In this document: positions 8,866 through 62,606 of the stretch, piece after piece
Layout: each line of letters starts with the position of its first letter
Numbering within the stretch: position 1 is the stretch's first letter
Virus record (IMG/VR): IMGVR_UViG_3300038435_000048
Span: 12,277-76,276 of that record
Length of the DNA: 64,000 nt
Source: a virus
Taxonomy: Duplodnaviria > Heunggongvirae > Uroviricota > Caudoviricetes
Reading direction: 5' to 3' (one strand)
Translations under genes and position numbers: made by a program
Notes under the pieces: generated by a model
The model's input: only the letters and a program-made list of their open reading frames with translations
Database searches by the model: none
Told to the model about the DNA's origin: nothing

Positions 8866-10016
8866 GTAAGATCCGCGTAGTTCACCATTCCAAGACTGTT
8901 GGCTTTAGCGGCACAGATCGCACAGCCCAACTCTTTTGTAAGCATCTGGCACAGAGCGAAAAGTACGAGCCCTTTATAGTTTATCGTGAGGGCGACCTTG
9001 CTAACAACCGCCTAGATATCGTCAAGTCTTGGCTTGGCGAAGACCACGTAATTCCCTATCAGTGGACGCCTGGAAAGAAGGGACAGCAGCCTCCCTTCCT
9101 GCCGGAGTCAGACAACCTCTACGACGTTTTAAAGCAGATCGATCCACAGATTATGCACGTCCACAGAAGCGGCTATACCGAATGGCCGTGTTTTCGTTGG
9201 ATGGCACCCAAGGCCAAATGGATTGAGACTAACATCTTCGGCTTTAAGGATAACGCACCTGAGCCGCAGATCGACCTTAACGTCTATATTTCGCAGTACA
9301 TCCTGAATACCGCCCTGCGAGCGGGAGGTCCCAAGGGGCCAGTGCTGTACAACCCTATTGAAGTGCCCGTCCTGGAAATGACGCCAGAAAACAAAGAGGC
9401 GTGCCGTGAACACCTTCTTTCTACTTTCAAGCTACCTCCGAACGCGGTTTTACTTGGACGTGTAGGTAGAGCGGACAACTTCGATCCTATCTCTCTGAGA
9501 GCATTCAAGGAAGTAGAAGACGCCTATCCTAATGCTTACTATCTCGTAGTTAACCCATGTCAGGGATGGCACGACACGGTTCGCAAATTAGGGATTCAGA
9601 ACGTTCGCTTTTCAGGTCCGATCGTTAACGATAGCGAGCTATCAAAATTCTACATGGGACTTGACATTTATGCCCATGCTCGTCATGATGGTGAATGCTG
9701 CCCATGCAACATTCAGGAAGCCATGATGCATGGCCTACCTGTTGTCTCACATGAAAGCATGATCTTCAATGGACAATCTGAGATTCTTGCGGAGAGTGGA
9801 TTCGTTGTGCCAGTAGGACACCACGAAGCATATCGTGACATCCTCATGCAGCTTATTGAGAATCCTGAAATGATGAATGAAGATGAGACCGCTCGCGTGC
9901 GTCTTCGAGCACATTTTAGTCGAGAGGCTAGACGACGTGCTATGCGATACTTTGAGGCTAGTACGGTTACGAGCCAGCTTGTTCAGATCTATGATTGGAC
10001 ACTTGCCAACAAATGA
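8862..10016 (+). CDS. glycosyltransferase group 1 (GT4), tandem paralog of 7768-8865
   Basis: LLGRVGRADNFDPISLRAF ... YAHARHDGECCPCNIQEAMMHGLPVVSHE; same architecture as the upstream gene. Confidence 0.75.
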   Translation: MSKIRVVHHSKTVGFSGTDRTAQLFCKHLAQSEKYEPFIVYREGDLANNRLDIVKSWLGEDHVIPYQWTPGKKGQQPPFLPESDNLYDVLKQIDPQIMHVHRSGYTEWPCFRWMAPKAKWIETNIFGFKDNAPEPQIDLNVYISQYILNTALRAGGPKGPVLYNPIEVPVLEMTPENKEACREHLLSTFKLPPNAVLLGRVGRADNFDPISLRAFKEVEDAYPNAYYLVVNPCQGWHDTVRKLGIQNVRFSGPIVNDSELSKFYMGLDIYAHARHDGECCPCNIQEAMMHGLPVVSHESMIFNGQSEILAESGFVVPVGHHEAYRDILMQLIENPEMMNEDETARVRLRAHFSREARRRAMRYFEASTVTSQLVQIYDWTLANK

Positions 10017-10804
10017 AGATCATCAGCTTTTGTCTATGGGGCGATAATCCCAAATACAATATTGGTGCCATCAAGAACGCTCAGATCGCACGCGATTTGT
10101 ATCCTGATTGGACTTGTCGGTTTTATTGTTCCGCACTGACTACTCCGATTGACGTGTTGAGGACGTTGTATAGTGTTGATGGTGACGATACATCAACTAC
10201 TACAGCCTCATCATACGATCTTGGATTCCCTGCAATCATGCATACGACTCCCAGTCGTAGAATTCAATTGGTAATAGCACCAATGCGTGATGGTTGGAAA
10301 ATGATGTTCGATCGTTTTCAAGCCGCTTCCGATCCTGACTGCGAAGTAATGATTTCACGAGACTGCGACTCTCGTCTCTCGAAGAGAGAGAAAGCGGCAG
10401 TTGACGAGTGGTTAGCTTCGTCAAAGGCGTGGCACATTATGCGGGATCACCCGTGGCATGGTGCCCTGATGTTAGGTGGCATGTGGGGGGTCAAAGGCTG
10501 CCCCGCAATGACGGATTGGATTTCAGCATGGAATGCCGAAGACCGTTATCAGACTGACCAGGACTTTTTACGTACCAGTGTTTATCCAATTGCTCGTCAC
10601 AACGCAATGATTCATGCACAGTTCTGTGCAGTAGAGCCAGATACAATGCCCTTCCCTAGTATGCGTAGCGGGCTAGAGTTTGTTGGACAAGTATTTGACG
10701 AGAATGATATTACTATTGCCGAACATCAGACAATGCTTATGAAGGCCCTTAAGGGACGCGGGGAACCTATGCGTCTTGAACATCTACCAGAAGGATTACT
10801 ATGA
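10013..10804 (+). CDS. putative GT-A glycosyltransferase (DxD)
   Basis: MKIISFCLWGDNPKYNIG start and a VMISRDCDSRL DxD motif. ATGA overlap with the upstream gene. Confidence 0.45.
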   Translation: MKIISFCLWGDNPKYNIGAIKNAQIARDLYPDWTCRFYCSALTTPIDVLRTLYSVDGDDTSTTTASSYDLGFPAIMHTTPSRRIQLVIAPMRDGWKMMFDRFQAASDPDCEVMISRDCDSRLSKREKAAVDEWLASSKAWHIMRDHPWHGALMLGGMWGVKGCPAMTDWISAWNAEDRYQTDQDFLRTSVYPIARHNAMIHAQFCAVEPDTMPFPSMRSGLEFVGQVFDENDITIAEHQTMLMKALKGRGEPMRLEHLPEGLL

Positions 10805-11262
10805 AGATTATCGCACTGTTTATTTTGTCTTTGTTTGCCGCTCCTCAGAGTAGCAATCCATATTGTGGAACTAGTCCTGACGACTTCTATCCTATCCCTC
10901 AACCTAACTGCCCTAGCACAAGCACGATCGATATCAATTGTGCGGCGGCATGTGCTGATCTGTGGCAGACGGAAATGATGTTGGCATATGATGCGGCGTG
11001 TGCGTCATACGCCGCCGCAGAGGCGGAATGGAATTCTTGGGAAGCTGCCATTCAAGCTGGATATGAAGCCTGTATGGCTGTAGCACAAACGCCTCAAGAT
11101 GGTGTCAATTGTTATAGAACGATGCTACAACAACAAGACGCTAATCAAGATCTATTCGATTTGCGAAAGGGGTATATCGAAGAGGATTTGGCTGATGATG
11201 TGCAGGACGCTATGGACTCGTACAACGACTGTACTGACGACTGCTGCATCAATGGACACTGA
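10801..11262 (+). CDS. secreted Cys-rich acidic protein (signal peptide)
   Basis: N-terminal MKIIALFILSLFAAPQS signal-like segment and many Cys. Confidence 0.45.
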   Translation: MKIIALFILSLFAAPQSSNPYCGTSPDDFYPIPQPNCPSTSTIDINCAAACADLWQTEMMLAYDAACASYAAAEAEWNSWEAAIQAGYEACMAVAQTPQDGVNCYRTMLQQQDANQDLFDLRKGYIEEDLADDVQDAMDSYNDCTDDCCINGH

Positions 11263-11560
11263 TGTTTTAGCTGGCTATGGACAGGACGCTGTGACTAAAG
11301 AGCAGCGTCCGGTCATTGCAGGCGAACACATTTTTAAGTTGATCGATTCTAAAGGTATGCCATTAGATCTCGTTCAAGAGCTACTACAAGAACACAAGCT
11401 GGCCTTTGATGTATATGGTTTTATCAAGGCGGCACGTAAAAGCAAAAACTATTCACGAGAGCGACTGATCAATCTATTGATCCCGATAGACAATAAGATG
11501 TCAGATCAACATCAAGCACTGACACGATTTTGCATAGACAAGGTATACAATGATTCGTAA
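11252..11560 (+). CDS. hypothetical protein
   Basis: Internal Met start (MDTDVLAGYG) immediately after the upstream stop. Confidence 0.35.
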   Translation: MDTDVLAGYGQDAVTKEQRPVIAGEHIFKLIDSKGMPLDLVQELLQEHKLAFDVYGFIKAARKSKNYSRERLINLLIPIDNKMSDQHQALTRFCIDKVYNDS

Positions 11561-12611
11561 GGGTTATTCATTTGACGACGTTCTGCTCGTCCCACGTTAC
11601 AACGACATACCATCGCGTCGTGACGTAGATACCTCCATGAAGTTTGGCGGACTCAATCTAAGAGTGCCTGTGCTCTCGTCAAACATGGACACGATCACTG
11701 GTCTCCAAATGGCAGGCAAGATGTGCTACTTGGGTGGACTGGGGGTACTGCATAGATTCTGTACCATTGACGAGAACGTTCAAATCTTCCGCCAGCTTGG
11801 TACGGGCAACGGTGGCGGAGCGGCTGTCAATTCACTTGGCGTCAATGAAGAGTTCACACGCTTTGAAGCCCTGTATGATGCTGGTGCTCGTTACTTCTGT
11901 GTAGACGTAGCTCATGGTCACACAAAAGCCATTGGCAAGTTCATCAAGTCACTCAAGCGGATCCACAATGATATCTTCGTGATTGGTGGCAATGTTGCGA
12001 CACACGCTGGGGCTGATTATCTTGCGTCGTGCGGAGCGGATGCTATCAAGGTGGGTATTGGACCAGGATCAGTTTGCACGACGCGAATCAAGACTGGTTG
12101 TGGCGTACCGCAGTTGACAGCGATCATGGACTGTGCCAAGGTTGATCGCCTCATCATTGCCGATGGCGGTATTCGTACTCCAGGTGATGCGGTCAAGGCA
12201 TTGGCCGCTGGTGCCCATGTCGTTATGCTTGGTGGCATGCTCGCTGGAACGGACGAGACCCCTGGCAAGATAATCGAACGTTCGTACACAACTGGACCAG
12301 CGGACGGTACACTTGTGCTAATTCAAGAAGTACATCGTTTCAAGACGTTCCGTGGCATGGCCTCTAAGGAAGCTCAAGAAGACTTCATGGGAGCCATGGC
12401 AGATTGGAAGGCAGCCGAAGGCGTACAGATTGAAGTCAAGTGCCGTGGACCTGTAGCCAATGTGATCAACGATCTCGTTGGCGGTATTCGTTCTGGCATG
12501 ACGTACTGTGGAGCAAAGGACATCGCGGCGTTGCAACGCAATGCCGAGTTCATTGAAGTTACACCTAATGGTGTAAAGGAAAACTCACCCCATGGAGAAG
12601 GAAGACTATGA
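11550..12611 (+). CDS. IMPDH/GMP reductase family protein (GMP-reductase-like; ~350 aa with no CBS insert)
   Basis: [29 protein letters not shown] catalytic Cys loop and [10 protein letters not shown]. Length fits GuaC rather than IMPDH. Confidence 0.7.
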
Positions 12612-12973
12612 CAATTATCGAGAAGTGTGAACGTGGCTTGGCACTTGCCAAGGAACTGGGATTGAATGACAATCAGACCAAGGAACTGATGGCACTCATT
12701 TTAGAGTTGCCATACTTCAAGTTCAATTTGAATCCACCCGTCACAGTACCGGCTACGCCGATTGTGCCGTGGATCCCCAACACGCCAACGTGGCCGGGTA
12801 TTGGCGGACCAGTGTATCCTGGCGACACCATCATCACATATGGCGTTGCACCAGGGAGCACAGATTTTGGTGGCATCACATTGTGTGCCTGCTCTCCCGT
12901 TGGACAGCCACACAGCGATAGCTGCAAGTCGGGCGACTCTATCTTTGAAGCTCACAAGGCACACGATCACTGA
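12608..12973 (+). CDS. Pro/Thr/Cys-rich small protein (possible glycosylation acceptor or modified peptide)
   Basis: Helical N-terminus LALAKELGLNDNQTKELMALILEL followed by PPVTVPATPIVPWIPNTPTWPG ... ITLCACSPVGQPHSDSCKSGDS. ATGA-coupled on both sides. Confidence 0.45.
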   Translation: MTIIEKCERGLALAKELGLNDNQTKELMALILELPYFKFNLNPPVTVPATPIVPWIPNTPTWPGIGGPVYPGDTIITYGVAPGSTDFGGITLCACSPVGQPHSDSCKSGDSIFEAHKAHDH

Positions 12974-24406: not shown

Positions 24407-24870
24407 CATTTTGTCGTTGCCATTGCCATACTATTCCTGGCGTTAAGCACGTTATACCGTGCTGTCATTGGTCTGGTGAGCAGTTTACATTTACGGAGTT
24501 ATACATGGGACTGACGTTTGAAGAATATCAGCGGCACTCTGCTGCTACTGCTAAGTATCCTAAGGTATTTGTTCAGCAGGAGGATGGTAGTATGCTTGAA
24601 GCTACCTACATCTATCCAGCCTTTGGTCTTGGTGGTGAATCTGGTGAAGCTCTTGAAAAAGTCAAGAAGCTTATTCGCGATCAGCGTGGTGTAGTAGATG
24701 AAGCTGCACGAGCGGCTATTGCCAAAGAGCTTGGCGATGTACTTTGGTATGTTTCTGCAATCTGCAAAGAGTTTCAGCTTGATATGGGCGATGTCGCTCA
24801 GGGCAATTTGGATAAGTTAGCGTCGCGTTCCGCACGCGGTGTGCTCGGTGGTAGTGGAGACAACAGATGA
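24403..24870 (+). CDS. mazG: MazG-like nucleotide pyrophosphohydrolase
   Basis: LTFEEYQRHSAATAKYP ... GLGGESGEALEKVKKLIRD ... ELGDVLWYVSAICKEFQLDMGDV. Start may instead be the internal Met at 24505. Confidence 0.6.
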   Translation: MTFCRCHCHTIPGVKHVIPCCHWSGEQFTFTELYMGLTFEEYQRHSAATAKYPKVFVQQEDGSMLEATYIYPAFGLGGESGEALEKVKKLIRDQRGVVDEAARAAIAKELGDVLWYVSAICKEFQLDMGDVAQGNLDKLASRSARGVLGGSGDNR

Positions 24871-26606
24871 AAATTTTGATTAAAGCTTTAGCAATTCTCG
24901 CTCTCTGTTCTGTAGGGGTCGCTCAAGTCAGTTCGTCTGCAAGAACTGCTATGAAGACGGCGAACATCGTCAGTGGTCCCGCACCGCTGTCTGTTGTGTT
25001 TGATGCCGTTGGTATTGATACTAAGGTTGTTCAACCAAAGAACTTCAATGATGCTAGCTATAAGTGGGGCTTTGGTGACTCCAATGCTGGTACGTTCGCT
25101 GTCAATGGCAAGAGTAAGAATAGTGCCTTTGGTTATGTAGCTGCTCACGTTTATGAAGTGCCCGGCACGTATACAGCTTCGCTACAGCTTGTGACATCAG
25201 ACGGTGCTCTTCGTAATTACACACAGATAATTACTGTTACAGATCCAGATGTGGTATATGCTGGACAGACATATTACATTGCTGATAGTGGAAATGATGC
25301 TACTGGTAATGGTAGTCTAGCTAACCCATGGAAGACGCCCAGTAGAGGATTCAGTGTTCTATGGAACGACTCTGTTCCACGTCGCATTCTCTTTAAGCGA
25401 GGCGATGTATTTGCAACGTCTCCATTACAGGCTCCTATGGGTGGACGAGTTGGTCCGTTCCATGTAGGTGCATATGGTACTGGTAGCAAGCCCATCATTC
25501 GTCTCACGACTACATCTGGTAGCGGCGACTATAGTATCTTGAACTTGTCGTATTGGCATCAATCGACTGGCCTAGCGGTTATTGATGGTTTGAGAATTGT
25601 CGATGTTGACTTTGACCGTGTTGACGATCGTGGTCAAGGCATCATCATTGGCAAAAATACTCTGTTGCTCAATTCATTGGTAACGAATTGTGGTACGGGC
25701 TTGACATGCTCTGACCCTATCTGTAAGAACAATGTTGTTGCCAAGTGTGAATTCTTATCTCAGGGCGTATATGCCATCTATTATTCTGTTGGCTATGGTA
25801 ACATTGGTTCTCCAGACCACTTCGCATTGCTAGACACGAAGGTTAATCCTCCCACGAACAACTCTCTAGTGAGAACATACGCTGGACGTATGGTGTGGCA
25901 GGGGAATAACTTCATTGGCTTTGCTAACCAAAGTCCTACACGTATTATGGGTATGTCAGATGAGCACCCTACCAAGTATGTTTGTGTAACGGACAACGTG
26001 TTTCAAGTTCAAGCAGCTTGGGTGCTAGAAATTGGTCCTGAAAACAATCAGAACGGTGATGGTGTTCACCCTCAAATTGTAGACACGCTTCTACTTGAAG
26101 GCAATATCTTTAGACGTGCCCCTGGTGGTGATTACTTCCAGACTTTTGCTATGCTCTGGGGCCACAATATTGAGGTACGCAATAACATCTTTGATTGTTC
26201 AAACACTATTGGTGGCAATGTTATCGAAGTAAATACTCGTGGCATTGGTCCTAATCCTCGTGGAGTTCGTGTTAGGAACAATACTGGATTCAGATCCACT
26301 TCTACTACAGAGGCGTGGAACTTTGTTGGCGTTGGTGTCGTTGGTGAGCCGGTGATTGTGGGGAACAACTTGGTGTACGCTCCAGCATCGACTGTGCGTA
26401 TTGCTACTGGCAATGCAACGACGTTCAATAACCTGACTGGTTATGACGCCTTTGTTGATGAAGCTAATGGCGACTTTCACTTGTTCTCTGGTACTAACTC
26501 AGCAGTGAACACTGGAGCAAACGCTCCTATCAGATACGATTTCGATCGTAACCCTCGTCCCTTCACCCCACTATGGGATATTGGGGCTTTCGAAAGGCAG
26601 CAATGA
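24867..26606 (+). CDS. secreted PKD-domain / right-handed beta-helix protein (putative polysaccharide depolymerase)
   Basis: Sec signal MKILIKALAILALCSVGVAQV; PKD-like VSGPAPLSVVFDAVG...GYVAAHVYEVPGTYTASLQLVTSDGA; long Asn/Gly-rich parallel beta-helix-like repeats. Confidence 0.55.
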   Translation: MKILIKALAILALCSVGVAQVSSSARTAMKTANIVSGPAPLSVVFDAVGIDTKVVQPKNFNDASYKWGFGDSNAGTFAVNGKSKNSAFGYVAAHVYEVPGTYTASLQLVTSDGALRNYTQIITVTDPDVVYAGQTYYIADSGNDATGNGSLANPWKTPSRGFSVLWNDSVPRRILFKRGDVFATSPLQAPMGGRVGPFHVGAYGTGSKPIIRLTTTSGSGDYSILNLSYWHQSTGLAVIDGLRIVDVDFDRVDDRGQGIIIGKNTLLLNSLVTNCGTGLTCSDPICKNNVVAKCEFLSQGVYAIYYSVGYGNIGSPDHFALLDTKVNPPTNNSLVRTYAGRMVWQGNNFIGFANQSPTRIMGMSDEHPTKYVCVTDNVFQVQAAWVLEIGPENNQNGDGVHPQIVDTLLLEGNIFRRAPGGDYFQTFAMLWGHNIEVRNNIFDCSNTIGGNVIEVNTRGIGPNPRGVRVRNNTGFRSTSTTEAWNFVGVGVVGEPVIVGNNLVYAPASTVRIATGNATTFNNLTGYDAFVDEANGDFHLFSGTNSAVNTGANAPIRYDFDRNPRPFTPLWDIGAFERQQ

Positions 26607-30915: not shown

Positions 30916-31112
30916 GAATTCATACCCTCAAACACTCCCATCTTGAAACGCATGGCACGGCACCGTACTCTGGTGTTGAAGTCAGTGCTGACAAGAAGTC
31001 ATTTGGCTTGACGTTCATGATCAATGAACACAATGGCGTTTATGTTTCTGACATGACTCGCAAGCAGTTGCAAGATTTGTACGACACTATTGAGCGAATG
31101 CTGGATCGCTGA
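30912..31112 (+). CDS. hypothetical small protein
   Basis: ORF. Confidence 0.3.
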   Translation: MRIHTLKHSHLETHGTAPYSGVEVSADKKSFGLTFMINEHNGVYVSDMTRKQLQDLYDTIERMLDR

Positions 31113-31113
31113 T

Positions 31114-31794
31114 ATGGAAAAAGGCTACACCATCCCCGTCCTCGGACAGGGGTACGTTCGTTACATCGACCACCTAGGCGACGACCTTCGTATTGTCGAG
31201 ACCGCACGGATCAGCTACAAGTCGCCTAGTAAAGGCGAAGAAGCTGACAAGAAGCTCTTGATGTACCTGCACAAGAATCGGCACACGAGTCCGTTCGAGT
31301 CGTGCAACATCACGTTCAATATCAAGATGCCTATCTTCTGTATGAGACAGTTCGTGCGTCACCGTACTTTCCGTCTCAATGAATGGAGTGGACGTTACTC
31401 AGAACTAGCCGATGAGTTCTACATGCCTGATGTCTGGAGAGTTCAAGACGACAAGAACAAACAAGGCAGTCTTGAAACAGATAAAGAACAGACATGGCAT
31501 GTGATTAACACTGGCCTCGCTCAAGAGGCTTTCAAGAATTGCTACAATACCTATCAGACTCTTTTGAGTCGTGGCGTGGCAAAGGAACTGGCCCGCGTTG
31601 TGCTGCCGGTGTCAATGTTCACGGAAGTGTATGTCAATGTGGATGTGCATAATCTCATGCACTTTTTGAGGTTGAGACAGGATGCCCACGCACAAAAAGA
31701 GATGCGTGATGTCGCTGATGCGATGGCTGAGATTTTCAAGGAACTGTATCCTTGGTCTTATGAGGCATATCAAAATAGTCGTTCGGGGAATTGA
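31114..31794 (+). CDS. thyX: FAD-dependent thymidylate synthase ThyX
   Basis: ThyX motif RHRTFRLNEWSGRYS. Confidence 0.85.
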   Translation: MEKGYTIPVLGQGYVRYIDHLGDDLRIVETARISYKSPSKGEEADKKLLMYLHKNRHTSPFESCNITFNIKMPIFCMRQFVRHRTFRLNEWSGRYSELADEFYMPDVWRVQDDKNKQGSLETDKEQTWHVINTGLAQEAFKNCYNTYQTLLSRGVAKELARVVLPVSMFTEVYVNVDVHNLMHFLRLRQDAHAQKEMRDVADAMAEIFKELYPWSYEAYQNSRSGN

Positions 31795-32492
31795 ATATGA
31801 AGTTTAGTTTGTCTTCCGCAGTTATGGGTGCGTGTATTGCGTTTGGTCTACTTGGTTTGAATTCGTTTCGATCACCGCGAGTAGATTGTTTGACACAGGA
31901 GCAGGAAGAAGTACTTGCTCTATTGAGCGTCACTACGATTCCTGATTGTGTAGAAGGACCAGGATACAACACATTGGTTTTAACTGGTGCTAACCTACAG
32001 ATTGTTAATGGTACAGGCTATACCGATACCACCAATGGTCTTGGCAACTTGATTGTTGGTTATGGTGGCACTGGTGGTACTATCTGCGACAACAGCGGAT
32101 CGCATAATGTGATTGTTGGTCAGAACAATGCCTATGCTTCATACGCTGGTCTTGCCACAGGACTGAATAATCAGATGCTAGCACCATTCAATGTAGTACA
32201 TGGTGGTGCAAACATCGCGTCTGATCAATTCAGTGAAGTCCTGGGAGGTCTCAACGGTCTTTCCGATCATGACTTTTCTGTGCTTGTTGGTGGATCATAC
32301 AATATTGCCGAGGGCGATTACTCAGTTGGTGTAGGTGGCGAATTTAACTCTGTCTCCAATAACTATGGAGTGACAGTAGGTGGATATTCTAATACCAATA
32401 CGGCTGACCATGGTGTGATGGATGGTGGTAGTACTCGTTCTATTTCTGGTCAATATGATTGGCGTGCAGGTAGTCTATTTGAGGACAACTGA
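31791..32492 (+). CDS. signal-peptide YadA-head-like beta-repeat protein (fiber/adhesin-like); paralog of 61692-62606
   Basis: N-terminal MNMKFSLSSAVMGACIAFGLLG hydrophobic segment; repeated xVxVGGxxNxAxG motifs; C-terminus DWRAGSLFEDN shared with the minus-strand paralog. Confidence 0.55.
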   Translation: MNMKFSLSSAVMGACIAFGLLGLNSFRSPRVDCLTQEQEEVLALLSVTTIPDCVEGPGYNTLVLTGANLQIVNGTGYTDTTNGLGNLIVGYGGTGGTICDNSGSHNVIVGQNNAYASYAGLATGLNNQMLAPFNVVHGGANIASDQFSEVLGGLNGLSDHDFSVLVGGSYNIAEGDYSVGVGGEFNSVSNNYGVTVGGYSNTNTADHGVMDGGSTRSISGQYDWRAGSLFEDN

Positions 32493-33157
32493 TGGCTAAT
32501 ATTGCGAAATTTATTAATGTCGTAGGACATAAGTATTTTCGTAATAAGGATCAATTCCTTCTTGAGGCTGAAATACGCTTCAAGAAGGAATGTTCTATTG
32601 ACGGTTGGGCTTCTGCTGGATTGATGAGTCTTATGAACCAAGCGGTTGGGGAATGTATATCTCCCGATGAATATTATCTTGAAATAGGTACTTACGCTGG
32701 TAGAAGTTTAGCTGGTGCCTTACAAGGCAATCATGCACTTGCTTACGTTATAGATAATTTCTGGGATAGTCAATCTCTGTTACCAACTTTCAAACATAAC
32801 ATTAAGACTTTTGCTATTGATGATCGTGTGGCTTATTATGAAGGTAATGCCGAAACGTTTACTGAGTCATTACCCAAGATCGGTGTCATGTTTTACGATG
32901 CCAATCACGATCGTGGATACACGCACTTCAATCTGAATAAGTTTGAATCGTTTTTGAGTGACGAAGCTATCATTATCATTGATGATCTTGAAATAGAAGC
33001 AGGGTTGGGGCACACTACTTATCCAGGCTATGAGATGAAGTCCATGACTCCTGTATTAGATGATACAATTCAGTGGCTTAGAGAACACCCCAAGAGCGAT
33101 CTTATGATGTTAACTCCATGGACCTTTAAGCAGGCGTGGATTCATTATAGACGCTGA
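32492..33157 (+). CDS. class I SAM-dependent (O-)methyltransferase, CmcI-like
   Basis: YYLEIGTYAGRSLAGAL ... VMFYDANHD ... IIIIDD. Confidence 0.55.
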   Translation: MANIAKFINVVGHKYFRNKDQFLLEAEIRFKKECSIDGWASAGLMSLMNQAVGECISPDEYYLEIGTYAGRSLAGALQGNHALAYVIDNFWDSQSLLPTFKHNIKTFAIDDRVAYYEGNAETFTESLPKIGVMFYDANHDRGYTHFNLNKFESFLSDEAIIIIDDLEIEAGLGHTTYPGYEMKSMTPVLDDTIQWLREHPKSDLMMLTPWTFKQAWIHYRR

Positions 33158-33261: not shown

Positions 33262-33708
33262 ATGTCTTCAACGGTAGCATCAATTATTGGCAGCGGAACG
33301 CTGGTCCAAACTCGTGGTATTCTTCCGCCCTCTCAGCGTGGCACCCAGTCTAATGGCGAGGGCGTGCGTCTTGGCATGCAAGTCATGGTTGGCAATCCCG
33401 AGGACTTGAACTCGGTCGATGCATTTGCCGTGTCTGGTGTATCGCTCGCGGCAACTCCAGTTCGTATCTGGGGACCGGGCATTAACTCATTGCCAAGACA
33501 ACGCGAAGTGAAGATTAAGAATCAGGGTCCTGGCTCTGTGTACATTGGTCCGAACTCGACTTCGGTCATTGCACCTAGCGGTTTCCAGATTGCTCCACCA
33601 ACAGCGAACAACACGTTCAATGAAATCACGTTGCCAGTTCTATGGAACGTTGACATTTGGGCTAGAGCAGATGGCGGCGGTGCATCCGTAACGATCCTCG
33701 CGTACTAA
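33262..33708 (+). CDS. small putative virion protein, tandem paralog A
   Basis: Similar to the 33739 ORF (GEGV...NPE...; NxGPG..YIG); sits at the head of the fiber module. Confidence 0.45.
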   Translation: MSSTVASIIGSGTLVQTRGILPPSQRGTQSNGEGVRLGMQVMVGNPEDLNSVDAFAVSGVSLAATPVRIWGPGINSLPRQREVKIKNQGPGSVYIGPNSTSVIAPSGFQIAPPTANNTFNEITLPVLWNVDIWARADGGGASVTILAY

Positions 33709-33738
33709 GGGGACTCCCTTTGATGGAGAATACCCCTT

Positions 33739-34179
33739 ATGCCACGAGACTATAACTCTGTACTCGGGTCAGGTACGACACCGAACGTAGCTCAGTCGCC
33801 GCCTTACAGTATTGCGGACGGCACATTTCCCGTACCCGATCAACGCAACCACCTTCGCAACCGTCAAGGTGAAGGCGTTGTGGTCGTTAACCCCGAGAAT
33901 TTCTCGGTGTCAATTGGCCTGCGACAACAGGCCATTTCTGTGCCGGGCGGTACTGGTGTAGCATTGCCAGTGACGCCCCTCGAATACAGGCGAGCACTTG
34001 TATTACACAACTCTGGTCCTGGAATACTGTATATTGGACTTGTTGGTGTAACTACTGGTGACGGATTTCCTATCGCTGTGGGCGAGAAGATTTCAATCGA
34101 CTGTCAAGGCACTCCCAACGTAACCCTTTACGGCGTCTCTGACTCTACATCTGATGTCAGAGTGCTTGAGTTCGCGTAA
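33739..34179 (+). CDS. small putative virion protein, tandem paralog B
   Basis: Paralog of 33262-33708. Confidence 0.45.
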   Translation: MPRDYNSVLGSGTTPNVAQSPPYSIADGTFPVPDQRNHLRNRQGEGVVVVNPENFSVSIGLRQQAISVPGGTGVALPVTPLEYRRALVLHNSGPGILYIGLVGVTTGDGFPIAVGEKISIDCQGTPNVTLYGVSDSTSDVRVLEFA

Positions 34180-34577
34180 TGGTAAACGTTGGCGGCATTG
34201 TATCTGTCGGTGGTAGCTCCGGCGGCAGCGGTGGATCTACTTCTGGCATCACGTCAATCAACGGCCAGACTGGCCCTGCGATTGTTATTGTTGGCGTTAA
34301 TGGTATAACAGTCACAGCTGGCGGCAACCAAATTCTCATCGATGGTGCCGGTGCCTCGGGCACAACGAGCGGAGCGAGTAAGTTTGCCGCATCCTTTTCT
34401 TCTATTTCAAGTGGACTGTTCACACACAACTTAGGTACGCTTGATGTAATAGTTCAGGTGTACGATAATGGCGGTCCACGTCGTGCAATCATGCCTGACG
34501 ACATTATCATTGAAAATACTAATGAGATATCCATAATCTTCAACTCCCCACAATCGGGGAGAGTGGTCATTATTTAG
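34179..34577 (+). CDS. Gly/Ser-rich fiber-associated protein with a shared C-terminal domain
   Basis: GGSSGGSGGSTSG tract; C-terminal FTHNLGTLDVIVQVYDNGGPRRAIMPDDIIIENTNEISIIFNSPQSGRVVII is homologous to the C-terminus of 34602-35372. Confidence 0.5.
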   Translation: MVNVGGIVSVGGSSGGSGGSTSGITSINGQTGPAIVIVGVNGITVTAGGNQILIDGAGASGTTSGASKFAASFSSISSGLFTHNLGTLDVIVQVYDNGGPRRAIMPDDIIIENTNEISIIFNSPQSGRVVII

Positions 34578-34601
34578 TGTAATGATAGCTGGAGGAATAC
34601 C

Positions 34602-35372
34602 ATGGTAAGACTAAACGGCGATCTCATACCCGGCAGTAGCGGCCAAGCACACTTGGGTGTGAATGGTGGCGTAGGCGATGCATTTGATATAACCACGCTA
34701 ACACCGTTCGGTCATATCCATATGAACTCTGGCGTCTGGCACGACCCCATGACGGGGCAGTCAGGCGTCCTTAGATTTAGCCAAGCTGCTGGTGCAATGC
34801 AAGTCTCGGTTGACGGCGGTAGAACGTTCACGAATCTCGTGACGAGTGCCGGTACCGTTACATCTGTTGGCGTGCTTGGTGGGGCTAACCTTACTGGCGA
34901 CGTTGATGTTGCAACTCGTGCTAGTGGCTTCTTGGCCATTACTGATTCTACGGGTGCTTCACCACTATTTTTCGCAGTTGACAACCTTGGTTTGTCTGGT
35001 CTGTGGAGATTCCCAACACAAGGCTTCAACGGATCCGTTGTTAACGAATTGACGGACTTCAATGGTACAAAAGTACAAGGATCCGTTGCTGTTGTTGGTG
35101 CCTCTGGTGTTGTTGTTGACATCGTTGGACAAACAATGACGATCACTATGGGCAACGGAGTGGTCAGAGCATTCGCTCAGACGTTCGGTGCTGCTGTGAC
35201 GTGGACTGTCACACATAACCTTGGCACTTCCGATGTAATGGTTGATGTGTACGATGCTAATTCCCCACGCAACGCTATCATTCCTGACTCTGTTGCAATC
35301 ACAGATTCAAACACGGTAACAATTGGTTTCAACGTTGCACAGGCCGGTCGAGTGATGATCACAGGATTCTGA
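34602..35372 (+). CDS. tail fiber protein (short)
   Basis: N-terminus MVRLNGDLIPGSSGQAHLG is shared with the 1002-aa fiber; contains a HIHMNSGVWHDP repeat unit and the FAVDNLGLSGLWRFPTQGFNGSVVNELTDFNGT block. Confidence 0.6.
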   Translation: MVRLNGDLIPGSSGQAHLGVNGGVGDAFDITTLTPFGHIHMNSGVWHDPMTGQSGVLRFSQAAGAMQVSVDGGRTFTNLVTSAGTVTSVGVLGGANLTGDVDVATRASGFLAITDSTGASPLFFAVDNLGLSGLWRFPTQGFNGSVVNELTDFNGTKVQGSVAVVGASGVVVDIVGQTMTITMGNGVVRAFAQTFGAAVTWTVTHNLGTSDVMVDVYDANSPRNAIIPDSVAITDSNTVTIGFNVAQAGRVMITGF

Positions 35373-35373
35373 T

Positions 35374-38300
35374 ATGGCTAGAGTAACCGGAGATCTGTGG
35401 CCGCAGTCTAGCGGTACAGCTTCGTTGGGAGCGGAGATGACAAATGGTGGTCTTGGCCGCGAGATCCGTCCATTCGCAAGTATCCACCAGAACAGTGGTG
35501 TGTTCCATGATCCCAAGCATGGGACTTCGGGTGTCCTTAGATACACTCGTGTGCCACAAAATTTCGAACAGGGCTTTTTCGAAATGTCTGTGGACGGTGG
35601 TGCTAACTTCGCCAGAGTCGTGACTGGCTCCGTCGTTACTCAAGCGGACCTGCCTAATAGCAATAACGACATCGTCGGTCAGGTTGAATTTGGTAGTCAT
35701 GGTAGCGGTTTTGTGGCCGTTACGCTTGGTGGCTTCGGGGCAACATTCCTCTTTGCCGTTGATAACCTTGGACTATCTGGTTTGTGGGGATTTCCTACAC
35801 AGGGATTCAACGGCAAAGTTGTCAATGAACTCACCGACTTCAATGGCACGCGAGCACAGGGTGCTATCAGTGTTGTTGGTGCCTCCGGTATTGTTGTAGA
35901 CATCATCGGTAACACGATGACGATTGTGCAAGGAGCGGGCACGGCCCTACCTCCGACTGGCAACATTGTCCCTGACGCTAGCGGCACTCGCCACATTGGC
36001 TTTGAACCTGTTGGCGATATCCTAAGACCATACGCTTCCATTCACCAGAACAGTGGCGTGTTTCACGGTACATTTGGTGGCTCTGGCATCATTAGTTTTG
36101 TCGATCCAATTGATGACTTCCGTAGCTTCCCTGGTGGTCAAAATCGTGTTGACTATGGACACTTCGCCTTCTCAGCGGATGGTGGAATTACAAATCCGCT
36201 TTTGATTGGTGCTCGTCGTGACCCACTTGGATGGCCAACGTTACCAGATGGAGCCACGCTTCGTAATATCAACGGCCCCATTCATATCCTTTCTAGCGGC
36301 CTGAATATCAATACCGCTGGACAAGGCATGACTATTAACGCCTTTGATGGTGGCATTAACTTTGGTGCTAACTTTGGCATCACAATTCAGTCTGATCTGT
36401 TGCTGACATTGATGGCTAGTAGAAATGGCAATATCATTGCTACTGCCGGTACATCTGCTCTTGATGGTGGCCAGATCTCACTTTCTCCATTTGGTGGCAG
36501 TGGCACCTTATCGTACCAATTTGGCCCTCACCAGGGCTGGTACATCAAGACAAGTCATAGTAGCACTGGCGGACCATTCAATGATGGTAGTTGGCCAATT
36601 GCTCACTCTGGTAATGTAAACCAGTTGTTGAATGCTGCTGTTGCTACACTGAATACCTCTATTAATGCCTTGGGTGCAGACCTACAGAGCAACCTTGTTC
36701 CTGATTTTAGTGGTGTTCGTTATATTGGTTGGGTAGGCTATTCCACAAAAGCAATTAGACCCTACGCCCACGTTCACCAGAATAGTGGCGTGTTCCACAA
36801 CCCAACTCGTGGATCATCTGGTGTAATTCGTTTCCAGAATAGTGCATTGACATCGCCATCAAATGGTGACTACTTTGGATTCTCTTTCGATGGTGGCAAG
36901 TGGTATCCATTTGAGCTTGGTATCAACAAGACTCTTGAGGGTATTGGTGCTGATCTTCTTGCTCCGCATGGCGGCATGCGTGTTCTTGCTAGTGGTGCTC
37001 TTAGTCTGCACTCTGTGAATGATAATGTGGAGCTAACTACTGCTGCCGGTGACATTGTCATTGCTCCGGTCGGTAATGAAATCCACAACGTAACTGGACT
37101 CTATTCAGAAAACGTGGCTGGTAATCGATCTTCATCTGCTCAGGATGAATCGCATACCGTTGATGACAACTTTAGTGTTGTTGCTACAAACGGTGTGATT
37201 AACTTTGAAACATTGTCTGATGTTGGTGACATTACACTGAATAGTGTTGCCGATGTGATGCTAGAAGCGTTCAATCACAGTGGCGTTCTGTCATATAGAT
37301 TTGGTCGGCACCAGTCTTGGTACATTAAGACCACTCACAGCAACACGGGTGGACCGTACAATGATGGCTTCTGGCCGATTGCTCACTCTGGCAACGTTGC
37401 CCAGATGATTGCACAGGCTGGTGGAGGTTCCATTCCTGGTAACACAGGCGATGTGTTCTTCAATAATGCTGGAGCGTTGGCTACTGATAGTCTTGGACTA
37501 ACCTTCAACGACTCAATCAATGCCCTTGGCGTGAGTGGCCAGATTCAATTCGGTCGCAACAATAGCTTGTCTATTGATGCTACAGCCAAGGGGCCACGCT
37601 CTGGTTCTGGCGTCGCACAATTCTCTGCTATCAATCTGGCTGAGCGTCCGATGTTCGGGGCTTCGAACTCTGGCATGAACTTGCCATACTTTTTCCAGCC
37701 AGCACTATTCACCAAGCATATTTTTATGGTGATGCCATCTGTTTCGACATTAGTTTCGACATATGGTAACACATCAACAAACGCTGGTACAATTTCTCAT
37801 CCCGCAGCAGGTGTTGGCTCTGGTTTCATGGCCAACTTTGTGACGGGTGCATCTGCCAACTCTGCCGCTGGTACTGGTAGCAATAATACGCTTTACTATC
37901 GTGGTGCGATGTCTGGTGTGAACACTGGATTCTTCTACGCAACTCGTATTACATTGCCGGATGCAAACCTTGATGGTGGTAGAGTCTTCGCTGGATTGAC
38001 TGCTGGTTTGATGGCTAACATGGTAACAGCCGACGATCCTGCTGGGGACTATTGTGGATTCCAGTTCACAACTACACAAGCCAATCCAAAGAACTGGCAC
38101 TTCATTACTAAGGATGGTACTGCTCAGAATAGACAAGACACTGGTATCTCTTGCTCCGGCAATAGAATCTGGGATATGTACATCTATTCACCGCCATTCC
38201 CGAACAACAACGTTCTCTATTGGACGTTGCACGATGTGTCATGGAACAGAATCTCTAACGGCTATGCCATTAATCGTTTGCCGCGTGTCAACACTATCAT

Positions 38301-38382
38301 GCGTCCTGGTTTCCAGCTTAACAACCTGACTGCCAGTGCTCGCAATATTCGTATGCAACACCTTTACTGTGAAGGATTGTAA
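35374..38382 (+). CDS. large tail fiber protein (1002 aa) with internal repeats
   Basis: Three copies of the (I/L)RP(F/Y)A(S/H)(I/V)HQNSGVFH unit; duplicated SG(T/V)LSY(Q/R)FG.HQ.WYIKT.HS.TGGP(F/Y)NDG.WPIAHSGNV block; N-terminal anchor shared with 34602. Confidence 0.65.
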   Translation: MARVTGDLWPQSSGTASLGAEMTNGGLGREIRPFASIHQNSGVFHDPKHGTSGVLRYTRVPQNFEQGFFEMSVDGGANFARVVTGSVVTQADLPNSNNDIVGQVEFGSHGSGFVAVTLGGFGATFLFAVDNLGLSGLWGFPTQGFNGKVVNELTDFNGTRAQGAISVVGASGIVVDIIGNTMTIVQGAGTALPPTGNIVPDASGTRHIGFEPVGDILRPYASIHQNSGVFHGTFGGSGIISFVDPIDDFRSFPGGQNRVDYGHFAFSADGGITNPLLIGARRDPLGWPTLPDGATLRNINGPIHILSSGLNINTAGQGMTINAFDGGINFGANFGITIQSDLLLTLMASRNGNIIATAGTSALDGGQISLSPFGGSGTLSYQFGPHQGWYIKTSHSSTGGPFNDGSWPIAHSGNVNQLLNAAVATLNTSINALGADLQSNLVPDFSGVRYIGWVGYSTKAIRPYAHVHQNSGVFHNPTRGSSGVIRFQNSALTSPSNGDYFGFSFDGGKWYPFELGINKTLEGIGADLLAPHGGMRVLASGALSLHSVNDNVELTTAAGDIVIAPVGNEIHNVTGLYSENVAGNRSSSAQDESHTVDDNFSVVATNGVINFETLSDVGDITLNSVADVMLEAFNHSGVLSYRFGRHQSWYIKTTHSNTGGPYNDGFWPIAHSGNVAQMIAQAGGGSIPGNTGDVFFNNAGALATDSLGLTFNDSINALGVSGQIQFGRNNSLSIDATAKGPRSGSGVAQFSAINLAERPMFGASNSGMNLPYFFQPALFTKHIFMVMPSVSTLVSTYGNTSTNAGTISHPAAGVGSGFMANFVTGASANSAAGTGSNNTLYYRGAMSGVNTGFFYATRITLPDANLDGGRVFAGLTAGLMANMVTADDPAGDYCGFQFTTTQANPKNWHFITKDGTAQNRQDTGISCSGNRIWDMYIYSPPFPNNNVLYWTLHDVSWNRISNGYAINRLPRVNTIMRPGFQLNNLTASARNIRMQHLYCEGL

Positions 38383-60562: not shown

Positions 60563-60655
60563 AGTTACATGATATCCTGTAAAGCGTGTTCTGTCAAGCT
60601 CAAAGGTATAACATTTCCAAACTTAGTGTATTTGGAATTAGGATGGAGTTATACA

Positions 60656-61192
60656 ATGGGTAATCCTCGAAAATTGTCGTTGACGTGTAAGAACTGTGGT
60701 ACTGCTTTCTCTGGATCCGTTACGATTGATGGAGTCAGACGAAAGCTTAGCAAATCGCGTTATTGTCTAACCTGTTCACCTTGGCAGGGTCCGGGTGCCA
60801 CGAAACGACAGCTAACCAAGTACAAGACTATTGATAGTGTAGAGCACAGACTTTGTTCTAGGTGCAATCAGTTCAAGCCATTGACAAAAGAGTTCTTTAC
60901 ATTCAGACCAAGTGGCAGAGTTGATTTCTGCAAGCCGTGTATGGCAGACAAAGTACGTATTGCGGCACGCGAAGATAAGTTGCTGTGCATTGAATACAAG
61001 GGCGGTAAGTGCGAGGATTGTGGTGGAGTATTCGCTCCGGGCGTCTATGATTTTCACCATTTAGAGCCACACACGAAAGAATTCGCTATCTCTCGTAAGA
61101 TGCGTAGGTCATGGGAGACGCTCAAAGCTGAACTTGATAAGTGCGTTTTGCTTTGTGCTAATTGTCATAGAATACATCACTCGAATTTGTAG
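60656..61192 (+). CDS. HNH endonuclease
   Basis: YDFHHLEP...CVLLCANCHRIHH; GGAG RBS upstream; opposite strand to all its neighbours. Confidence 0.65.
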   Translation: MGNPRKLSLTCKNCGTAFSGSVTIDGVRRKLSKSRYCLTCSPWQGPGATKRQLTKYKTIDSVEHRLCSRCNQFKPLTKEFFTFRPSGRVDFCKPCMADKVRIAAREDKLLCIEYKGGKCEDCGGVFAPGVYDFHHLEPHTKEFAISRKMRRSWETLKAELDKCVLLCANCHRIHHSNL

Positions 61193-61692
61193 ACGTAACG
61201 CTCTATGAAGGCCGCGTGACTGTCTTCAATGAGTTTGCGAGTCTCGGGCGTGTAGTACGATTGATATGGTCGTCGGATAGAAGCATTGACCACCTGAAAC
61301 TCAGATTCCAATAATGGCCATCCGGCTCGTTCACAGATCAGCGGAACATCGTTTTGCAGCGTTTCATATCGAAACACGTCGTCAACGATAACGCGATCAT
61401 TATCCATGAAGTAACACGCCTGATCAATGTCTGTCTGCATCAACCATTCGTGGAATGGTGTTGTGATCCCGCAGTGATGATAGAACGACACTGCCCTGTC
61501 CCATGGATTGCGGATGATGGTGAACTTGTACACTGCATCCCATAGTGTGCCAAGCCTACGCCTACGCTCTATGGCGTGGCTATGATCTTGAGCATTGATA
61601 TATTCAAGATTGTTGATCTTGTTATTCAATGCCCATTTCAAGGCCACACCACCAGTTCGCGGGATGTGTATGAAAACACTATCCCAATTCAT
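61177..61692 (-). CDS. sulfotransferase-family protein
   Basis: IHIPRTGG (5'-PSB-like) and RNPWDRAVSFY (3'-PB-like) motifs. Confidence 0.55.
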   Translation of the reverse strand: MNWDSVFIHIPRTGGVALKWALNNKINNLEYINAQDHSHAIERRRRLGTLWDAVYKFTIIRNPWDRAVSFYHHCGITTPFHEWLMQTDIDQACYFMDNDRVIVDDVFRYETLQNDVPLICERAGWPLLESEFQVVNASIRRPYQSYYTPETRKLIEDSHAAFIERYVYKFE

Positions 61693-62606
61693 CAGTTGTC
61701 TTCGAACAGACTACCAGCACGCCAGTCAGAAGTACCCGATGACGTTCTGCTGTCGCCACCTGAGACAGTTGCTTGAGCACCAGAAGCAGTGTTGTTGCTG
61801 CCACCAGATACAACACTGTTGTTGTAAGAAGCGGTATTTGTATGACCGCCAGCAACCGATGAGTTGTTGCCACTTGCTACGTTGTTTTGACCACCAGTCG
61901 TAACGGCAAACGCTCCACTAGCGGTGTTGGAGGGGAACGTTGACGAATTACCTCCACCAACCGTTGTGGAACGCATTCCGCTAGCATAGTTCAGGCTACC
62001 ACCAAAACAAGAAGCGGCTTCCACGTCGTCAGTCTGATTGCCTACGCCACCAGCAATAACACCATAGTAACTACGAAGTGTTCCTTCGTCGCCGCCAATC
62101 ATTGCACCGAGAGAGGCGTCAGACGTAATCGTATTCAGATATCCGCCACCCATGAATGCACTATCAGCATTGTTGATGTTGGAATATCCACCAATAATGG
62201 CGTTGTATTGAGCGGTCGAAGTGTGCGTCTGTCCAACAACGATGCTACCGAAGCTCGTATAGTTGTTATCAACACCACAAATGATGTTGTGAGAACCATC
62301 ACGATCGCAGGGATTCAAAACTTCATTGTAGCCAACAATCAGGTTACCAACTCCAGTTGAAGTGGCGGTCGCATTTTCTCCATTGACGATCTGGAAGTTT
62401 GCACCAGTGACGCGAAGCGTCGTAAATCCAGGACCGTCCACACAGTCAGGCGTTGTCGTCACGCTCAACAAGGCTAATACGTCCGCCTGTTCTTGTGTCA
62501 GGCACTCCCGCATTGGAGCACGGAACGAATTCAGGCTAAACAAACCGAACACAAGACATGCACCCATAAGGGCGGACTTGAAATCAAACTTCATACTCTT
62601 CTCCAT
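61692..62606 (-). CDS. signal-peptide YadA-head-like beta-repeat protein; paralog of 31791-32492
   Basis: N-terminus, CLTQEQ..VLALLSVTT.PDCV.GPG core and C-terminal DWRAGSLFEDN all shared with the + strand paralog. Confidence 0.55.
   Translation of the reverse strand: MEKSMKFDFKSALMGACLVFGLFSLNSFRAPMRECLTQEQADVLALLSVTTTPDCVDGPGFTTLRVTGANFQIVNGENATATSTGVGNLIVGYNEVLNPCDRDGSHNIICGVDNNYTSFGSIVVGQTHTSTAQYNAIIGGYSNINNADSAFMGGGYLNTITSDASLGAMIGGDEGTLRSYYGVIAGGVGNQTDDVEAASCFGGSLNYASGMRSTTVGGGNSSTFPSNTASGAFAVTTGGQNNVASGNNSSVAGGHTNTASYNNSVVSGGSNNTASGAQATVSGGDSRTSSGTSDWRAGSLFEDN

Follow-up and report, generated by a model that had tools for sequence, protein, structure and literature searches.

Left-handed beta-rolls form the head of UspA1, a trimeric autotransporter adhesin of Moraxella catarrhalis (PDB 3pr7/3ntn; repeat family UspA1_rep, PF18792), and rolls of the same class occur in viral YadA-like/LbR fibres, for example a 'YadA-like protein [Myoviridae sp.]' and the Pithovirus collagen-repeat proteins in BFVD, which are 300-1,200 aa long and in some cases carry collagen repeats or S74 chaperone domains. 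The immunoglobulin-binding Eib adhesins of E. coli (EibD, PDB 2xqh) are expressed from prophages and are full trimeric autotransporters with both stalk and anchor. A further described protein of related type, the ice-recrystallisation-inhibition protein of Lolium perenne (PDB 3ult; PF21300), is a monomeric plant protein. Here we describe two genes, copy A and copy B, that encode beta-roll proteins in a 64,000-nucleotide stretch (the window) of the IMG/VR virus record IMGVR_UViG_3300038435_000048, which has the appearance of a segment from a large uncultured phage. The proteins have a known fold and a known type of repeat, but their anchorless architecture, in which a signal segment, a cap, a roll and a second cap follow one another, is that of a very large undescribed family whose phage members may serve at the envelope of the infected cell.

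Copy A, the short type (231 aa), lies on the plus strand at 31797-32492, and copy B, the long type (300 aa), lies on the minus strand at 61692-62594, so that the two are in opposite orientations with a spacing of 29.2 kb. Each has an alternative start further upstream, TTG 31791 for copy A (a 233-aa open reading frame (ORF), 31791-32492) and ATG 62606 for copy B (a 304-aa ORF, 61692-62606). The likely start of copy A is ATG 31797, which is preceded by a GGGGA ribosome-binding site, and P0004, a database protein identical to copy A, begins MKFSL (P-numbers denote database proteins of the family); the likely start of copy B is ATG 62594, with a GGAG ribosome-binding site and an ortholog, P0001, that begins MKFDF. 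An initial annotation of the window had taken the two for diverged paralogs on opposite strands, and BLASTP bears this out, aligning them over their full length with 119/301 identities (40%) and E 1e-60 under composition-adjusted statistics. The similarity is not one of low complexity alone, since the first ~90 residues, which are non-repetitive, are 69% identical without a gap; a low-complexity artefact was rejected on both counts. Judging from these alignments, A and B are true, diverged paralogs. The core CLTQEQ..VLALLSVTT.PDCV.GPG, the identical C-terminus DWRAGSLFEDN and the N-terminal hydrophobic, signal-like segment that the same annotation had picked out are found in both copies, and autocorrelation of Gly and Asn gave a repeat period of 14-15 residues in each. 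A hidden Markov model (HMM) of the family, against which copy A scores E 9e-72, found no third member in the window.

The fold was examined with AlphaFold2 monomer models computed from an input alignment of 58 sequences, which reached a predicted local distance difference test score (pLDDT) of 74 overall for copy A, with values >90 at residues ~150-220, and of 85 for copy B. Both models begin with an N-terminal helix (residues 5-23) in the signal-like segment (residues 1-23), followed by a short helix of 7-9 residues (residues 34-42) with a small sheet, a poorly predicted loop at residues ~80-100 and a beta-roll that spans residues ~104-225 in copy A and ~104-293 in copy B. The roll adds a short set of strands every 14-15 residues, mostly with pLDDT >90, and makes about 13 turns in copy B. 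Ahead of it lies an N-cap with Cys, together with the helix (residues ~31-104 in copy A, with the same layout in copy B), which carries the motif TGANLQ[IV]VNG ... GNL[IV]VGYNE ... GSHN; G83, N84, G88, Y89, G101, S102 and H103 are invariant in the 58 sequences. Behind it, both proteins are closed ~10 residues past the last roll strand by a C-terminal cap, R..DWRAGSLFEDN, that follows the motif R-x7-W-x-[AS]-G-x-L. The mature proteins (residues 25-231 of A and 25-300 of B) contain no lysine and are acidic, with an isoelectric point of 4.0-4.2, and the family is lysine-poor in general, with a median of 1.1% Lys among 120 top hits.

Both copies have the left-handed beta-roll head of the YadA/UspA1 type, and a profile of the family matched the UspA1 sequence at E 3.5e-30. 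Of the likeness to trimeric autotransporter heads that was first proposed, the beta-roll itself is thus real, and more exactly UspA1-like, but the trimeric autotransporter architecture is not there. The models of A and B contain no coiled-coil stalk, the sole helix between signal segment and roll being that at residues 34-42, and no C-terminal barrel anchor of the YadA type was found (no YadA_anchor or other Pfam match at E<=1, with the models ending after the roll). With neither stalk nor barrel anchor, A and B are therefore not trimeric autotransporters. They differ from UspA1 also in having no neck, in their own N-cap (TGANLQ[IV]VNG..GNLIVGYNE..GSHN) and C-cap (R..DW.AGSLFE), and in being phage-encoded proteins of 231 or 300 aa that end ~10 residues past the last turn. 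Their resemblance to the viral LbR fibres is limited to weak Foldseek matches, at E 5e-4 or worse.

An HMM of the family, which is defined here by alignment, was scanned over 1.84 billion cluster representatives and matched 25,666 of them at E<=1e-3, of which 7,798 reached E<=1e-30; the first database search had returned 1,816 relatives. Among the named sources are Planctomycetota, Ca. Nitronauta (Nitrospinota), Deltaproteobacteria and Thermomicrobiales. A length of 300-500 aa is typical, and members share the N-cap TGANLQIVNG..GNLIVGYNE..GSHN, many SVSGG..N.ASG turns and a terminal DW.AGSLFE; W-x-[AS]-G-x-L falls within the last 16 residues in 97/120 top hits, and an N-terminal hydrophobic segment is present in 92 of the 115 top hits that start with Met. 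Classical AXA cleavage sites or a lipobox were seen in the inspected relatives P0008, P0010, P0077 and P0038 and in both copies of a related phage contig, L014 (L001-L014 denote the related loci and contigs compared). Relatives P0014 and P0116 contain collagen repeats (PF01391), and the N-terminal segments of several others look coiled-coil by eye, which suggests that these relatives form trimeric fibres. More than one family gene was carried by 16 of the 93 fetched loci, for example a five-gene tandem array in Ca. Nitronauta litoralis CP048685 (L092, 1712-9056) and a two-gene tandem on a Planctomycetota contig (L093, 217-3574), the latter followed by genes for a GT4 glycosyltransferase, a sulfotransferase, a sulfatase and a BNR sialidase-like protein. 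Bacterial members such as P0077 (Ca. Nitronauta litoralis G3M70_08820) and P0010 (Planctomycetota P8N09_00045) are like the window proteins in N-cap, repeats, DW.AGSLFE end and signal peptides. They are, however, mostly 300-500 aa long, have what reads by eye as a coiled-coil, or a collagen segment, before the roll, occur in tandem arrays of 2-5 and, unlike the window copies, have no methyl- or sulfotransferase directly downstream.

The family as a whole is not represented by a model in Pfam, NCBIfam, PHROG or PADLOC; NCBIfam gave no match even for the bacterial relatives, and an anti-phage defence or counter-defence family was rejected, as PADLOC gave no match. Neither copy had a tblastn match among the 50,697 phage records of INPHARED, and GenBank phages held no protein or DNA match to the gene or its 8-kb surroundings. 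IMG/VR yielded no close relative of A or B, only one repeat-only match when the alignment was used, and a query of the N-terminal 107 residues alone gave one match in a search limited by its word index. A description of the family or the phage clade was not found in the literature searched. By sequence, A and B are members of a huge, unnamed and mostly bacterial family of secreted or surface beta-roll proteins, and their appearance is that of cell-envelope proteins of bacterial origin. The head of trimeric adhesins thus occurs also as a stand-alone, anchorless module with a probable signal peptide, which a clade of large uncultured phages appears to have captured and keeps in two versions under strong selection.

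Relatives of A and B are found on phage contigs of 162-173 kb from four different samples, where the family gene occupies at least four different loci. It follows ThyX in the window (copy A), in L004-L007 and in L014, whose ThyX is distant; it follows a nicotinamide/nicotinate phosphoribosyltransferase gene (NAMPT) in the window (copy B), L001, L002 and L008; it lies inside a glycosyltransferase cluster after an IMPDH-like gene in L003; and it follows DNA ligase in L010. Direct examples of a pair of one short and one long gene are the window (231 + 300 aa) and L014 (214 + 280 aa), a 169.7-kb contig on which the two stand in tandem at 9361-10005 and 10007-10849 with a 1-nt gap and both carry classical AXA signal peptides. 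Two more pairs, P0003/P0001 and P0017/P0002, are proposed from proteins of different samples that are linked only by similar leader sequences. A conserved short and long pair in a large-phage clade, linked to varying transferases, was not found in the libraries or literature searched. Leader identity reaches 88% between copy B and P0003 and 73% between P0002 and P0017. The roll bodies, in turn, group by type, with 60% identity between copy B and P0002 and 71% between P0003 and P0007 but 20-29% between short and long, and the region-by-region identities between family proteins are thus mosaic at the sequence level.

The two versions are old and under constraint. Copy B and its ortholog in L008 share 85% nucleotide and 97% protein identity, and the ratio of nonsynonymous (dN 0.020) to synonymous divergence (dS 0.96) is 0.02, which marks copy B as a coding gene under strong constraint. 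A comparison of A with B gave 66% nucleotide identity over codons 1-89 and saturated synonymous sites in all segments (dS >1.5 or not computable), so that A and B are old paralogs whose like ends are maintained by selection at the protein level. Recent gene conversion between them was considered and rejected, as dS is saturated everywhere, the last 13 codons included. The agreement of the last 36 nucleotides at 31 positions, reported at the outset, is correct, and it arises because the encoded peptide is identical; the mismatches are at synonymous sites.

Exchange of cassettes between phages, on the other hand, is real. A tract of 962 bp that comprises the 3' half of a long-type gene and the sulfotransferase gene behind it is 99.4% identical between L001 (11622-12583) and L008 (1104-2065), whereas the flanks are 75-78% identical, which indicates a recent lateral transfer between diverged phages from the samples of one study. 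The long-type gene of L001 has lost its 5' 192 codons, in whose place stand a short-type gene, a methyltransferase gene and a fragment of an HNH-like gene; what is left is a remnant of 117 aa that is 98% identical to residues 193-300 of copy B. The window carries a free-standing, Cys-rich HNH-motif gene (60569-61192, plus strand; no Pfam match) that is convergent with the sulfotransferase gene next to copy B and overlaps its 3' end. Relatives of this gene lie on the minus strand of L001 at 11305-11634 and 12452-12931 and beside the family gene in L012 and L013; there are at least five tblastn matches in 20 kb of L001, and one fragment sits exactly at the breakpoint of the long-type truncation. 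This looks like a homing-endonuclease family that may drive local exchange.

As to function, the case is evenly balanced for a role as exported, envelope-binding proteins of the infected cell, which is the reading we prefer. On this reading, the two genes would encode shorter and longer forms of one acidic protein that lacks lysine, is exported and consists of an N-terminal Sec-type signal or signal-anchor, a short helix, a Cys-containing cap, a left-handed roll of the UspA1/YadA-head type and a Trp-containing C-cap. The family would have been captured, and the pair kept, by a clade of uncultured phages of ~165 kb that carry a large cluster of glycan-synthesis genes, and the protein would be made within the infected cell and then delivered to its envelope, as we infer from genes that abut those of nucleotide and NAD metabolism and a downstream transferase. 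There, the flat beta-roll could provide a binding surface that masks or binds a surface glycan or protein receptor, or alters the adhesiveness of the infected cell. Paralogy, fold, family membership, purifying selection, synteny and cassette exchange are directly supported by the data, whereas export, oligomeric state, site of action and binding role are inferred. Both copies have a hydrophobic segment at residues 8-22 after a Lys, with a mean Kyte-Doolittle value of 2.4, and are probably exported; two conserved Cys, at positions 51 and ~97, might pair in a disulfide outside the cytoplasm. Together with the signal peptides across the family, this Cys pair, the small size, the absence of an attachment region or fibre match and the metabolic setting make it probable that the destination is the envelope of the infected cell. 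A lipoprotein is unlikely, as the Cys of the candidate lipobox (VMGAC, residues 9-13) is preceded by only ~5 hydrophobic residues, which places it midway through the hydrophobic stretch, and is not conserved in P0007 and P0017.

Several points weigh against a role at the envelope. Export is read from sequence heuristics only, and the AXA site of the window copies is not canonical (LNS|F). Small genes that match 'head decoration / virion structural' PHROG families weakly come directly after copy A and its neighbourhood, and comparable beta-rolls occur in the fibres of phages and giant viruses. Binding at the envelope, whether as receptor masking or as altered adhesion, is a guess by analogy with adhesin heads, and the idea of a homotrimer is hinted at only indirectly, by the collagen repeats and apparent coiled coils of relatives. 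Should the envelope of the infected cell indeed be their site of action, the proteins would represent a new kind of phage 'surface remodelling' gene, alongside an unusually large glycan cluster.

The initial annotation had suggested adhesin or receptor-binding functions; the head fold behind this suggestion is real, but a place in the virion is doubtful. Under such an alternative, which we regard as unlikely, A and B would be virion fibres or receptor-binding proteins, that is, alternative tail-fibre tips or capsid fibres for two host specificities. It would account for the rapid evolution of the short-type copy, which is 45% identical to its counterpart in L004 (P0017) where the adjacent ThyX is ~75% identical, and for cassette exchange like that of receptor-binding genes, and it gains from the same fold in viral fibres and from the weak virion-structural matches of the genes that copy A precedes. 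Copy B, however, is highly conserved, with the dN/dS ratio given above, unlike typical receptor-binding tips. The N-terminus is of the export type, as in the secreted bacterial relatives; the proteins are only 231 and 300 aa long and have no recognisable virion-attachment domain; and neither PHROG, nor the tail-fibre families, nor the GenBank phages gave a match to them. The genomic setting also argues against fibres, as copy B and its relatives stand among NAMPT, ligase and sulfotransferase genes, one relative lies inside a glycosyltransferase cluster, and the two genes adjoin or overlap ThyX or NAMPT on the upstream side and a transferase gene on the downstream side.

These downstream transferases raise a further possibility, which we consider quite improbable: that the enzyme whose gene overlaps that of the beta-roll protein adds methyl or sulfate groups to this protein, either to the polypeptide itself or to a glycan it carries, and that the protein is a target or carrier for the glycan cluster of the phage. 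The methyltransferase noted earlier after the plus-strand copy and the sulfotransferase after the minus-strand copy were confirmed by Pfam and PHROG matches. The former (32492-33157, plus strand) is a cation-dependent, O-methyltransferase-like protein of the Methyltransf_24 family (37.1 bits; cut-off 26.3) with YrrM/PaMTH1 O-methyltransferases as weak PDB relatives, and the latter (61177-61692, minus strand) matches Sulfotransfer_2 (22.9 bits; cut-off 22) and PHROG 3347 'galactose-3-O-sulfotransferase' (E 1e-11). The stop codons of copies A and B each overlap the ATG of the transferase gene by 1 nt (TGATG), and the same overlap recurs at further junctions, to Methyltransf_21 in L001, to Methyltransf_11 in L003 and L004 and, in L013, to a sulfotransferase that is distant (27% identity). 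The pairing with a sulfotransferase recurs in L008, L001 and L013, and the phage clade thus shows four non-homologous combinations in which the family gene overlaps an O-methyltransferase or sulfotransferase gene. Methyltransf_24, Methyltransf_21 and Methyltransf_11 have no mutual BLASTP similarity, and the slot behind ThyX and the beta-roll gene is filled by Methyltransf_24 in the window and Methyltransf_11 in L004, even though ThyX itself is ~75% identical, which amounts by sequence comparison to non-orthologous replacement. PDB sequence searches with four neighbouring transferases gave weak O-methyltransferase matches for Methyltransf_24, weak matches to a methyltransferase fold for Methyltransf_11 (E 0.01) and no match for the remaining two.

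The association is suggestive of a functional link between beta-roll protein and transferase, and the recurrence of unrelated enzymes offers a lead to post-translational or glycan modification. Modification as such draws its support from the 1-nt overlap at five junctions, the three mutually dissimilar methyltransferases, the replacement in the ThyX slot, the position of the L003 pair within a glycosyltransferase cluster and that of the Planctomycetota pair beside genes for a sulfotransferase and a GT4 glycosyltransferase. We also count in its favour that some adhesins, rickettsial OmpB for one, undergo methylation prior to export. Methyltransferase genes are abundant in these genomes, however, with at least five in the window, and overlaps of 1-4 nt are the norm, so that chance adjacency is not negligible. 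The earlier proposal of a dedicated modification enzyme for each copy holds only in part: linkage to a transferase recurs in related phages with non-homologous enzymes, but the L014 pair has no downstream transferase, and what lies behind the gene in more distant and in bacterial relatives is unrelated, an astacin or a permease gene for instance. Mature A and B, moreover, contain none of the usual methyl acceptor, lysine, and no oligosaccharyltransferase or flippase was seen. We hold equally doubtful the fuller version, an exchangeable two-gene cassette in which an exported adhesin-head-like protein is methylated or sulfated, or carries a methylated or sulfated glycan from the 20-kb cluster; if it were true, phages infecting one cell would swap roll body and enzyme and so diversify the surface coat that they make for it.

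It is far less credible that A and B are the ends of an invertible segment of ~29 kb that is flipped by recombination between them, as had been proposed from their inverted orientation, and as their similar 5' and 3' ends and the reshaping of the gene family by recombination between phages might suggest. The copies offer no identical inverted crossover sequences; the longest exact run common to the two genes is 11 nt and out of register, far short of the normal requirement of homologous recombination, and the 66% nucleotide identity and saturated dS noted above speak against any recent exchange of this kind. No Pfam family of invertases, resolvases, integrases or other recombinases was found in window ORFs of >=100 aa, and PHROG scans gave none. 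The inverted orientation is explained by two convergent arms of tightly packed genes, plus-strand to 38.7 kb and minus-strand from 38.9 kb, which meet near 38.8 kb, and this junction beside copy A is also present in L004. Present-day inversion is very unlikely, and the tempting idea was removed as unsupported. Ice binding, suggested by the Pfam name LbR_Ice_bind (PF21300), can be dismissed as highly implausible, since copy B scores 17.9 bits, under the 30-bit gathering threshold, and copy A has no match, the UspA1 head match is much stronger, and relatives such as P0008 and P0010, which pass PF21300 at 36-40 bits, show the label to be unspecific because Pfam also assigns UspA1_rep to relatives.

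The genes that adjoin the two copies upstream are those of a ThyX thymidylate synthase (31090-31794, plus strand; PHROG 85, E 2e-68), directly before copy A, and of NAMPT (62610-63962, minus strand; NAPRTase, E 2e-32), directly before copy B. Promoter and terminator scans around both copies found nothing above chance; the terminator scan picked up a hairpin with a 15-bp stem at 32554-32591 (plus strand; ATTCCTTCTTGAGGC...GCTTCAAGAAGGAAT), which lies within the methyltransferase gene ~60 nt past the stop of copy A and is without a proper T-tract. The window further encodes RNR, HNH endonucleases, T4-type RNA ligases, a DNA ligase, a tRNA nucleotidyltransferase, PhoH, a dNMP kinase, MazG, a peptide deformylase, UDG, SSB and NADAR. 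Genes of counter-defence or takeover type comprise those for an Acb2/Tad1-like hairpin-domain protein, the NADAR protein, two sigma-70 region-2 proteins and a nucleoside 2-deoxyribosyltransferase, and the syntenic L001 also carries the Acb5 and Gad2 families.

The glycan cluster occupies ~20 kb of the plus strand (1339-21709) and encodes at least 11 glycosyltransferases (GT1/GT4-like, GT2 and Glyco_trans_1_2), several S-adenosylmethionine-dependent methyltransferases, an NAD epimerase, a GDP-mannose 4,6-dehydratase and an IMPDH/GMP-reductase-like protein. It is syntenic with L003, where the pair of beta-roll and methyltransferase genes sits within the cluster. Between the glycan cluster and the RNR gene, a plus-strand gene at 24867-26606 encodes a 579-aa PKD-domain protein with no PHROG match. 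On the other side of copy A, the plus strand carries a run of paralogs at 33262-38382 (148, 146, 132, 256 and 1002 aa) that have a common C-terminal domain, repeated in the 1002-aa member, and weak PHROG matches to 'head decoration / virion structural protein'; this run is conserved 3' of the beta-roll locus in L004 and L014.

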